From Nitrospirales bacterium (GTDB lineage Bacteria > Nitrospirota > Nitrospiria > Nitrospirales > UBA8639), in NCBI GenBank assembly GCA_965223295.1, contig CBDCWC010000003.1, forward strand, positions 960,001 through 1,024,000: DNA of 64,000 bases, in the 5' to 3' direction. The translations under genes and the position numbers were made by a program. Below the pieces are notes generated by a model, which worked only from the letters and a program-made list of their open reading frames with translations, had not been told where the DNA came from and ran no database searches. Below, piece after piece: positions 2,613-61,550 of this stretch (positions within the stretch are counted from its first letter, which is position 1; each line of letters begins with the position of its first letter).

Positions 2613-2790
2613 GGGACTGTTGAATAATAATGATATCAACGACCAAATTTCGTCTCAGCAACGTACCATGTCAGCGGCCTCGGGTCTGCCCGCTCGCCTG
2701 CGGAAGCCGCTTTCAGCCTTCGTAGCCACTGTGGCGAAGGAGGCCCGGCGAAGGCAGGGAACGCCGTTGGAGGCTTTTTTCAACAGACCC
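2613..2790 (+). mobile_element. MITE family copy 2 with nested palindromic units
   Basis: Same TIRs and left arm as copy 1. Flanks GGTAG/GGTAT (4/5). Interior replaced by a CCTGCGGAAGCCGCTT...CGGCGAAGGCAGG unit. Confidence 0.85.
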
Positions 2791-4589: not shown

Positions 4590-4639
4590 ACACTGAGTCT
4601 ATGCGAAGAGAGCGGTTTGAACAAGCCCACATACCATAT

Positions 4640-4830
4640 GGGGCTGTTGAATATAATGATATCAACGGCCACATTTCGTCTCCGCGACATCACATATCAG
4701 AGGCCTCAGGGCTGTTCAAAAAAGTCCGTCCAGCAAGGCCGCAGCCATTTTTTGCGCACGGAGCGTACTGGCAGTACGTGAGCACGGAAAAATGGCGAGA
4801 ACGCCGCTGGCGGATTTTTTCAACAGACCC
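4640..4830 (+). mobile_element. MITE family copy 3 (191 bp)
   Basis: TIRs GGGGCTGTTGAA / TTCAACAGACCC. Perfect TSD CATAT (4635-4639, 4831-4835). Confidence 0.9.
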
Positions 4831-12095: not shown

Positions 12096-13587
12096 CTAGA
12101 GCAATTGGCGCCAGGTGAGGACTTGGACGGGAAGAGTACGAAGAGTAGCGGTAATGGGACAGGTGTCGAGCGTGATAGTGACATCGTCGTGAAGTATATG
12201 CACTTGATTAGCATAGATAGCACCGTTAAGAATTGAGGGTCCGATTCCTCCAGAAAATGTGGCTTGCCCAGATACGATTACAACCCCGTCCCAATGGAAG
12301 GGAGCATCGATTTGTATATTGCCTTTGACAAGTAGGATGCCATATCCAGTGACCTGAGAAACTACAAGAGGACCATTTATAGGTTCAGCATATAGCAACA
12401 TAGAGGAAGCGGCTGAACCCATATTTGCTCCAGTTAAATCAGCTAACACAGGCGTTGCCCCCCTCTTTAGCTCATCAATCTGTTCTTCCAACTCCAACGA
12501 TGCAGGACTCATTTGAGGAGACACAGGATTACCGTTCAGACTAGCCACACCTACCAAGGAAGCCAAAGGAGCTAGTGAGATTGGAGAAAGGCCTGAAGGG
12601 AACAGCCCACAAGTATCCATGCCCTCAATGGTAACCCTACTTCCTGACATCACCACTTCCTTCCCAACGTAAACCGGAGCCCAGACTGGCGGACCCGTCG
12701 GATGAATGACATCAGCCTGAAGAATCGCTTCTGCCCCTTCAACTTGGCCATGACTGAGAATAACTTCAACAGGCGGATACAACGTTGGCTCTATGGTGGT
12801 GAATTGTTGCGGTGTTACAGACAAGCCCGAGGGATAGCCATATCGAACCAGTTCACCCTTATTGCTAATGGAATGCAAGGCTGTCTCACCATCACCATCC
12901 ACATAATGCGGGGTGGTTTTCCGATGTCCAGCCTGTTCGGCATCGTACTCCCTCTTGTGGTACGCCTTGGTCCAATACACTAATTTACTTTGCACACTAT
13001 TAGCCTGGATAAGGGTATTCGCGGCATTTCCTGAGAGCGGGATATAATTGGTCAGAAGCGCATCGTAGGCCTGATCGTCTTCTGGCTGCCACCCATCGTG
13101 GGAAAAGACATAGGCCGACCAATTTGATTGATACGGTAACGCAAGATCTCCAAGAACGAGGGGATTCGACGCGGGCGTTCCACTTAATCGTCGTTGTGTT
13201 TCAGCCAACCCTGCTTCTGCTGCATAAAAAGTCTGGATAGCTCGTCGATAATTACCACTGATCTGTAAATCAGTCGATGTGGCAAATAAGATCGTAGCGC
13301 CCATGATGCCTGATATGGCCACCAGCACAAGCGCGGCAATGAGAGCACTTCCTTGTCTCCCTTTCAACAAGGGGCTGTTGAAAAAAGCCACCAGCGGCGT
13401 TCTCGTCATTTTCCCGTGCTCACATAATACCAGTACGCTACGCGCACAAAAATGACTGCGGCCTTGCTGGATGGACTTTTTTGAACCGCCCCGAAGCTCG
13501 TGGTGTCTGATGTCACGATGGGCACATATGCCCTTTGATATCTTCATTATTCAGCATTCCCAACAAGGCTTTCTGCCTTCCACTCAT
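12096..13587 (-). CDS. pilX: PilX-like minor pilin/assembly protein, N-terminus interrupted by a MITE
   Basis: QGSALIAALVLV...AFYAAEAG-type PilX_N motif (here TFYAAEAG). Removing the MITE and one TSD restores MSGRQKALLKGRQGSALI. Confidence 0.75.
13371..13561 (-). mobile_element. MITE family copy (191 bp) inside pilX
   Basis: TIRs GGGGCTGTTGAA / TTCAGCATTCCC. Perfect TSD AACAA (13366-13370, 13562-13566). Confidence 0.9.
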
Positions 13588-33446: not shown

Positions 33447-33701
33447 AGATCTAGTAAATAATTCTAGACAATCGCTTGTAGAGGCGAGAGAAAATTTTTG
33501 ACAATCAGAAACTGACGGAATGGTCAATAAAGTCATCCAGCAAGGCCGCAGCCATTTTTGCGCGCGGAGCGTACTACTGGGCGTCAGTACGGCAAGAGAG
33601 CGACCTGCCTGCGCGAAGCCGCTTTCAGCCTTCGTAGCCACTGAGGCAAAGAGGCCCGGCGAAGGCAGGGAACGCCACTAGCGGTTTTTTTCAACATTTC
33701 C
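33447..33701 (+). mobile_element. Diverged MITE copy with a 66-bp nested unit, between vapB and vapC
   Basis: CCAGCAAGGCCGCAGCCATTTTTGCGCGCGGAGCGTAC core; right end TTCAACATTTCC; nested CCTGCC...GGCAGG at 33604-33669. Left end degenerate; no TSD. Confidence 0.75.
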
Positions 33702-34053: not shown

Positions 34054-34242
34054 GGGAGTGTTGAATAATGACGATATCAAGAATCATATTTCGCCAAGAA
34101 GCCGAGGGCAATCAAAAGGTTCGGGAAGTCAAAAAAGGCTGTCCAGCAAGGCCGCAGCCATGTTTGCGCGCGGAGCGTACGGGCATGACGTGAGCACGGA
34201 AAAATGGCGAGAACGCTGCTGGCAGCTTTTTTCAAAAGCCTC
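34054..34242 (+). mobile_element. MITE family copy (189 bp)
   Basis: GGGAGTGTTGAA ... TTCAAAAGCCTC; conserved core; TSD imperfect. Confidence 0.85.
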
Positions 34243-39809: not shown

Positions 39810-40000
39810 GGGTCTGTTGAAAAAAGCCGCCAGCGGCGTTCTCGCCCATTTTCCGTGCTCACGTAGGACCAGTACGCTCCGCGCGCAAACATGGCTGCGG
39901 CCTTGCTGGACGGACTTTTTTGAACAGACCCGAGGTCTCTGACATGTTACCTCTCAGACACGAAATGTGGCCGTTGATATCATCATTATTCGACAGCCCC
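39810..40000 (-). mobile_element. MITE family copy (191 bp)
   Basis: GGGTCTGTTGAA ... TTCGACAGCCCC; flanks GATAG/AATAG (4/5); internal end at 39915-39931. Confidence 0.9.
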
Positions 40001-51985: not shown

Positions 51986-52183
51986 GGATCTATTCAAAAA
52001 AACCGCCACCTACCCCGCTGGAGTAACTCAATGGGCTACGAAGGCCGAGAGCGGCGTTCCCTGCCTTCGCCGAAGCGGCTTCGCACAGGTGAGCGGACTT
52101 TTTTGAACCGACCCAACGCTGTTGATCGCCAAGGACTTCCTAACGAAATATGGCCGTTGATATCTTCATGATTCAACACTCCC
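51986..52183 (-). mobile_element. MITE family copy carrying two nested palindromic units
   Basis: Outer end TTCAACACTCCC; internal TTTTTTGAACCGACCC; units CCTACCCCGCTGGAG...GCTACGAAGGCC and CCTGCCTTCGCCGAAGCGGCTTCGCACAGG. Confidence 0.8.
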
Positions 52184-61199: not shown

Positions 61200-61550
61200 G
61201 GGGGTGACTGGCTTCGACGGGAAGCAGGAGGTCAACAGAGCGTGTCGAGCTCTCGGAGTCTCGTTAAACCTTCGGGAAACCATTAATTGCCAACGATAAT
61301 TTGGCTCTCGCAGCTTAATTGACTGCGACGTCTCTCTCTTCTTTGTCTGCGGGAGGGGAAGAGGCGACACTTTGCAGGCTGGTCCAAAACTGGTGCTCAG
61401 CGGCGGCGGACGAGAACGTTCTGGGCTAGTGGGCGCTCTAAGCCGGTCGGTGGGCGTGGGCAACCGCGAATTTTAAATCATCGGCTACACACGTAGGGCT
61501 GTTGCGCTGAATGTTCTCGGACAGGGGTTCGATTCCCCTCACCTCCACCA
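61200..61550 (+). ncRNA. ssrA: tmRNA, tag peptide (A)ANDNLALAA
   Basis: 5' GGGGGTG pairs with CACCTCC-ACCA (G3.U70); T-loop GGTTCGATTCC; tag ORF 61289-61318. Confidence 0.97.

Follow-up and report, generated by a model that had tools for sequence, protein, structure and literature searches.

Nested 23–42-nt hairpin units in a MITE of a Nitrospirales bacterium and a GIY-YIG cassette as their possible source

Units in the window and the element that hosts them

The window analysed here is a stretch of 64,000 nucleotides from a Nitrospirales bacterium (assembly GCA_965223295.1, contig CBDCWC010000003.1, positions 960,001 to 1,024,000). It carries several copies of a MITE, some of which are interrupted by much smaller palindromic units. 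An earlier note, made from the letters of the window, had described a unit bounded by CCTGCC and GGCAGG at 33604-33669, lying between GCGA and GAACGCC of the MITE core. On re-reading the unit is there as described, and the GGCAGG|GAACGCC junction was found again at 2753-2758|2759 and, reversed, at 52060. The relevant features of the window are the following.

33516..33701, + strand: MITE core copy with gamma-type ends that hosts unit A at site 2; its left arm is degraded and not delimited
33604..33669, + strand: unit A (34 nt, leader CCTG plus hairpin) at MITE site 2, GGCGA|GAACG, with no target duplication (TSD), carrying unit B
33624..33655, + strand: unit B (33 nt; here 32, one base lost) in the loop of A after GCCGCT
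2613..2789, + strand: MITE copy with alpha left arm, its interior deleted between site-1 A and site-2 A
2693..2758, + strand: hybrid A with the site-1 leader CTCG and the site-2 right end, carrying B
2712..2744, + strand: unit B, 33 nt
51986..52183, - strand: MITE copy with beta left arm and deleted interior, with a hybrid A and unit C
52060..52093, - strand: hybrid A without B, 34 nt
52008..52049, - strand: unit C (42 nt, B family) at MITE site 3, GCCGCT|GGCGG
34054..34242, + strand: empty MITE copy, the empty-site control within the window
Near 286-489, 4637-4830, 13371-13563 and 39810-40000: further empty MITE copies

The units A, B, C and E are non-coding and span 23 to 42 nt (A 34, B 33, C 42 and E 23). 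Each consists of a pyrimidine-rich leader of four nucleotides at the 5' end followed by an imperfect hairpin that is flush with the 3' end, and a core, CGWAGC-loop-GCGRAG, is common to A, B and C. Several ends had to be moved from where the earlier note placed them. The simple unit at 52060 exists and is 34 nt long (52060-52093), not 30, and the unit that interrupts a hairpin near 52009-52050, our C, is real and runs from 52008 to 52049 (42 nt), one base off. The third unit, B, is indeed present within A; its ends read TTCAG...AGGC and the cut GCCGCT|CCGGCG, one base to the left of the earlier position, the true ends of B being fixed by its copies in other hosts. Empty MITE copies in the window (for example 34054-34242 and 4709-4830) read GGCGA|GAACG with nothing duplicated. 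The fold of the nested 66-mer scores z -3.0 against shuffled sequences and that of the 122-nt MITE core z -5.3; the 30-mer, the copy at 2694 and the region of C fold no better than shuffles (z +0.1, -0.6 and -0.2, respectively).

Across the genome of 3.78 Mb, BLAST defines 313 MITE loci (309 once merged) that make up 1.4% of the DNA. The host element is an ordinary IS5/IS1182-type MITE and only its cargo is unusual, since it is about 190 nt long, has terminal inverted repeats, is flanked by a 5-bp TSD in 95 of 164 full-length copies (in a further 8 it is scored as 6 bp) and shares its end with a DUF772 insertion sequence found at one of 31 loci examined (L446), in a congener. The inverted repeats, the TSD and a matching autonomous element that mark such MITEs are all found, the DUF772 partner in the congener and not here, where the search for an autonomous element with these ends came up empty. 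One conserved hairpin core of 122 nt is joined to at least five unrelated left arms, each about 70 nt long, as can be seen in the window at 286-489, 13371-13563 and 34054-34242. Elsewhere in the genome there is a tandem array of at least 14 copies with a period of about 288 bp (G000:C2:87414-91446), probably a repetitive surface-protein gene.

A BLAST search of the genome gives 95 loci with units, of which 93 lie in a MITE context by eye and two are weak matches at E 0.5; with so many loci the nested units are not due to chance. Units are borne by about a third of the MITE loci (96/309 by a second rule set), and 201/309 were scored empty by one rule set that mislabels a few. A occupies two MITE sites, B and D lie inside A, C lies in the right arm, and E occupies two sites in the left part of the MITE. 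Another B-family variant sits at a further MITE site (C3:189969). The three tiers of nesting that had been proposed hold, and relatives add a fourth, with B in D in A in the MITE. The genome-wide count of stand-alone against nested units suggested earlier gave no stand-alone A or D in this genome: 50 of 50 matches to the A core and 6 of 6 to D fall within MITE loci. For E the figure is 13 of 16. The 12-mer of B has 29 matches outside the MITE, and among the 28 listed none shows the second arm by eye.

Among the unit copies are many hybrids, in which the left end comes from an A at site 1 and the right end from an A at site 2, or in which B is fused to C; the DNA that lay between is missing. 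Two of the three examples in the earlier note (the copies at 52060 and 2693-2758) are of this kind. In such copies the interior of the MITE was deleted between direct-repeat units. In contigs from sequencing runs, joints that skip B look the same as paralogous MITE copies and so are no sign of excision.

Occurrences elsewhere and the age of the insertions

No stand-alone A, C or D is found in this genome, and junctions are shared across the genus. Both observations would suit a reading in which the inserts arose locally by accident within a single MITE lineage, through palindrome expansion or slippage, and were never independently mobile. Against it, letter-identical A lies outside this MITE site in 120 of 125 listed metagenome loci, and within the genus B-family units occupy at least six different sites with different loops. 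The occurrences of A and the B family at other sites and in another phylum refute this reading, which we find hardly credible.

The exact 34-mer of A was found at no fewer than 125 metagenome loci; five of those listed are at this MITE site, and 120 distinct junctions are seen. By eye, the hosts among the listed loci are mostly C-rich hairpins, arrays of 7-mers and other palindromes. In one other phylum, A has seven copies at seven different host sites in 3 of 301 genomes. The base before A at the 120 listed junctions is G in 84, A in 29, C in 7 and never T, and the base after it is G in 92. The junction falls within a perfect hairpin in 33 of 110 listed cases as compared with 51 of 594 control positions; of these 33, 23 are located in the 3' arm and the other 10 in the loop, while the 5' arm has none.

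A motif-phase test showed that the 7-nt period is kept across the A junction in 16 of 17 array hosts, and A therefore makes no target duplication there. A cruder phase test, made earlier on six hosts, had a mixed outcome. An apparent duplication of one nucleotide is seen at 53% of A junctions and 31% of controls, which fits a G|G target bias, since the arrays keep their period. A stem-length test of C-rich hairpins favours no TSD in 12 of 14 cases, a result biased by runs of G. The arrays also show A in one fixed phase, right after a TTNG word, in 17 hosts that were chosen by that pattern (L215-L339).

The B family is represented at a minimum of 118 genome loci and in addition at 26 viral loci. 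The record titles include Desulfobacterales, Patescibacteria, Flavobacteriales, Planctomycetota, Verrucomicrobiota, Rhodospirillales and others. Among the matches listed, 102 of 144 are of the long form, and 95 distinct junctions of this form have the leader YYCR, preceded by T in 50 and by CT in 34. Within the genus, B variants with different loops sit in A (in both orientations), in D, in a second A-like unit and at two MITE sites. The genome G046 has 42 B-family copies, and the 22 examined are all in one context, which is amplification by a MITE. E is found at 126 viral junctions, 17 of which have a CCTG-like leader (CCTG, CTTG or CCCG).

To judge from these sequence comparisons, the units are real, mobile mini-elements that leave no TSD. 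The proposal of a second class of mobile units without TSD, nested in tiers, is thus borne out by empty sites without duplication and by wide occurrence elsewhere. The first half of the refutation offered with it, that the units never occur outside this MITE, falls away because they occur widely beyond it.

The history of the units within this genome appears different from a series of fresh insertions. At site 1 the leader of A is CTCG in 14 of 18 copies, the loop base T in 16 of 18 and the arm base C in 16 of 18, whereas at site 2 the leader is CCTG in 10 of 12, the loop base C or A in 11 of 12 and the arm base G in 11 of 12. At the main site of E, an adjoining T is seen in 7 of 8 filled MITE copies as compared with 4 of 191 empty ones. 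The A core is present in 17 of 24 congeners and in none of 16 other genomes of the order. Of 29 A loci listed from relatives, 28 are at site 2 and the remaining one is the same site-1 variant. The B-in-A junction pattern is found in 26 of 49 congeners. Because variants are private to a site and junctions are shared across the genus, each MITE site most likely traces to one or a few old insertions that were multiplied by the MITE. Copy number would then mirror transposition of the MITE and not repeated fresh insertion. The statement that a second system parasitises the MITE is accordingly right as to a second mobile class, and in this genome the units would be passengers from a few old events per site.

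Inserts are found with every left-arm class and are unlinked to polymorphisms of the MITE core among 230 copies, a pattern that repeated insertion would also give. From these two observations we infer exchange of filled alleles between MITE copies, with repeated insertion or loss as alternatives. The MITE tree that had been suggested as a way to separate single from repeated insertion shows only that inserts cross subfamilies: in a left-arm tree of 192 copies, made from a short alignment with no shuffle control printed and with rule-based labels that contain a few errors, the changes per number of copies are 36/46 for A, 17/18 for B, 17/17 for C and 7/8 for E. For this genome alone the meaning is modest, as the nesting would be mostly inherited cargo of an ordinary MITE.

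Candidate movers: Y1 transposases and a GIY-YIG cassette

The earlier note had favoured a RAYT or IS200 Y1 enzyme as the mover. Under such an explanation a RAYT or IS200/IS605 Y1 transposase of the HUH type would excise and insert the hairpins as single-stranded DNA. The lack of a TSD and the tetranucleotide 5' of the hairpin are HUH-like (in excerpts of PMC8266576), and the CT that precedes B at 34 of the 95 listed junctions is a RAYT cleavage site. Y1 genes are also available, with five in this genome and representatives in 47 of 50 genus genomes. However, the search for RAYT or Y1 genes bounded by units found none at the five Y1 loci of this genome (0/5). The core turned up once among 55 Y1 loci that cover 156 kb, close to its frequency in the genome as a whole; the sample takes the top-scoring locus of each genome and under-represents RAYT-type loci. 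Moreover, the leaders are not GTAG, and T never precedes A in 120 listed junctions. We consider a Y1 mover improbable. The congener G012 has 69 matches to Y1 transposases, more than 30 of them with an identical score, which is a recent IS200-type burst.

GIY-YIG genes can lie beside repeats of this kind, which prompted us to look there. The genome has one small stand-alone GIY-YIG gene, encoding an SLX1-like protein of 80 amino acids (PF01541; G000:C2:1078816-1079058). It is located just behind tRNA-Ser(GCT), with an inverted pair of hairpins upstream of the gene; the CGWAGC-loop-GCGRAG core of A, B and C recurs in such hairpins. The structure model of the protein has a pLDDT of 92, and its best-matching folds are HIGLE (E 2e-4) and Slx1 (E 6e-4); a search of the nuclease locus with NCBIfam and a PDB sequence search gave no match. 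Homologs are present in 20 of the 50 genomes of the genus and usually keep this layout; outside the genus the cassette layout lies behind tRNA-like ends or tmRNA (L418, L419, L666). The 300 nt upstream of the gene contain the core in 21 of 33 loci with close homologs, in contrast to 3 of 13 and 3 of 42 for GIY-YIG classes that are less closely related, counts that exclude 8 loci without a profile match; 18 of 29 remain after three duplicates and the motif-selected L158 are dropped. Most homolog loci that carry the core are kin of one genus. The first hairpin of the cassette, read on its own strand, has the anatomy of A, and its leader is CCTG in 10, CTTG in 7 and CATG in 4 of 26 matches.

The cassettes have a particular relation to RNA genes. 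In 21 of 26 cases the first hairpin lies between the discriminator base of tRNA-Ser and a second CCA (L006:1271-1740, which is G000:C2:1078592-1079061; L040-L064), and its own end furnishes a new CCA. A decayed copy of the tRNA 3' end lies downstream of the GIY-YIG gene in several congeners, and some have tandem cassettes. The ends of tmRNA genes host the cassette in L158, L419 and L421. The window has a tmRNA gene at 61200-61550 (Rfam RF00023), which alone was matched in an Rfam scan of the window; none of the matches was to the units. Cassette hairpins have in turn received D-type and other units, and may thus serve for landing and not for recognition.

Our preferred reading, to which we give a probability of roughly 0.55, is that the units derive from hairpins of the GIY-YIG cassette, with the nuclease defining the leader end and host repair making the joint, and that a few old landings in the MITE were then amplified with it. 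This is argued from sequence and by analogy. Like SsnA, a distant relative, the nuclease would bind single-stranded DNA in its folded form, and a cut just 5' of the hairpin would set the four-nucleotide leader. GIY-YIG enzymes are hydrolytic. Once released or copied, the oligonucleotide would enter a nick in a second single-stranded hairpin or repeat, where host repair would make the joint; A would favour cuts between a purine and a G, and B often cuts that follow CT or T. The nesting would follow from each unit being itself a hairpin with a GCT-type loop and so a target for another. Direct repeats (two copies of A, or B and C) would lead to deletion of the MITE interior, and exchange between MITE copies would bring each insert into all left-arm subfamilies. 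Only tentatively do we propose, as one possibility, that the 80-aa SLX1-like protein mobilises a whole superfamily of 23–42-nt leader-plus-hairpin elements, by a leader nick on folded single-stranded DNA, seamless insertion into hairpins including those of its own kin, and homing-like conversion between MITE copies.

The distribution of the gene leaves room for a different mover. Of the loci listed, none of the 125 for A and none of the 126 for E has a GIY-YIG gene within 400-500 nt; for B such a gene is that close at 2 of the 118 genome loci and at none of the 26 viral ones. No close homolog was found in the incomplete assemblies of the unit-rich G046 (with its 42 B-family copies), G017 and G011, nor in that of G193, which has three independent copies of A. 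A host or other trans-acting process might move the units, by nick repair at hairpins, template switching, an RNA copy or another leader-reading enzyme; the GIY-YIG hairpins would then be landing places or ancestral donors and the nuclease would be uninvolved. Several unit-rich genomes without a close homolog suit this explanation, as does a CCTG-type leader common to units with different hairpins (A, E and the L419 insert). The first cassette hairpin is likewise insertion-like, as the CCA follows it in 21/26 and its removal restores the tRNA end. However, it is with one GIY-YIG subfamily that the core is associated, its position and orientation before the gene being constant behind two different RNA genes, and in SsnA there is already a single-domain GIY-YIG protein that cuts 5' of its own hairpin (in excerpts of PMC11893778). 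We therefore regard a process without the nuclease as somewhat unlikely.

A different class of small GIY-YIG genes is flanked on both sides by GTCA-led hairpins (L526, L528, L535, L537, L529 and L525, from G046, G054 and G017). The hairpin of E resembles those at L526, L528 and L535, beside genes of that class, so one enzyme may not explain all of the units. A search of viral sequences with the single nuclease gave two weak loci.

Comparison with known systems

Elhai et al. reportedly described small dispersed repeats (SDRs) of Nostoc in 2008. Excerpts of PMC3116915 cite their Nostoc SDR study, and according to excerpts of PMC4390886 the SDR5 element of cyanobacteria inserts precisely into HIP1. 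The units share with the Nostoc SDRs that both are very small mobile repeats placed precisely in other short motifs, and the SDRs are not known to have a mover. In contrast to the SDRs, the units described here occur in other phyla and have a candidate enzyme and a leader-plus-hairpin anatomy; the two are likened by description only.

The second comparison is with the Ssn nucleases and the NTS-SRM system. The 80-aa protein scores 50-91 to a GIY-YIG class ending in W-x-D-L, which we take to be Ssn-like, as opposed to at least 150 within its own group. The SRM motif is present in none of the 309 MITE loci and is not found at the nuclease locus L006. SsnA cuts single-stranded DNA a few nucleotides 5' of its hairpin, and a mobile origin is suggested by its authors (Chenal et al. 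2025, PMC11893778, in excerpts). What is shared, as far as those excerpts extend, is a single-domain GIY-YIG protein of less than 150 aa (here 80 aa) beside oriented hairpins. The hairpins here are on one side of the gene only, however, and no case of an NTS inserted within another element is mentioned in those excerpts.

REP/REPIN-RAYT and IS200/IS605 systems likewise have short hairpins with a 5' tetranucleotide and lack a target duplication, and REPs sometimes lie inside longer palindromes (excerpts of PMC8266576, PMC3733652 and PMC3116915). Unlike REPs, the units have no GTAG/GTGG or CGTC tag, their leaders being CCTG or CTCG in A and YYCR at the listed junctions of B. In addition, they are single units instead of doublets and have no link to a Y1 gene. 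The units fall under none of SDR, Ssn/NTS and REP; we do not file them under Ssn or REP because neither SRM, GTAG nor Y1 flanks were found. Within the literature covered, to which subscription journals and supplements did not belong, there is no description of these units, alone or with this nuclease subfamily, which the Ssn supplements may list.

With precise ends, a target rule and a single small enzyme as candidate, the way in which very small repeats without TSD move becomes accessible to experiment. An enzyme that acts as we infer would have a new single-strand nuclease specificity beside that of Ssn, and perhaps a new insertion chemistry. If the 80-aa protein is the mobiliser, the units would be among the smallest mobile DNAs and would have a route to TSD-less mobility that is neither HUH nor DDE, which could also explain repeats of the SDR and RPE types.
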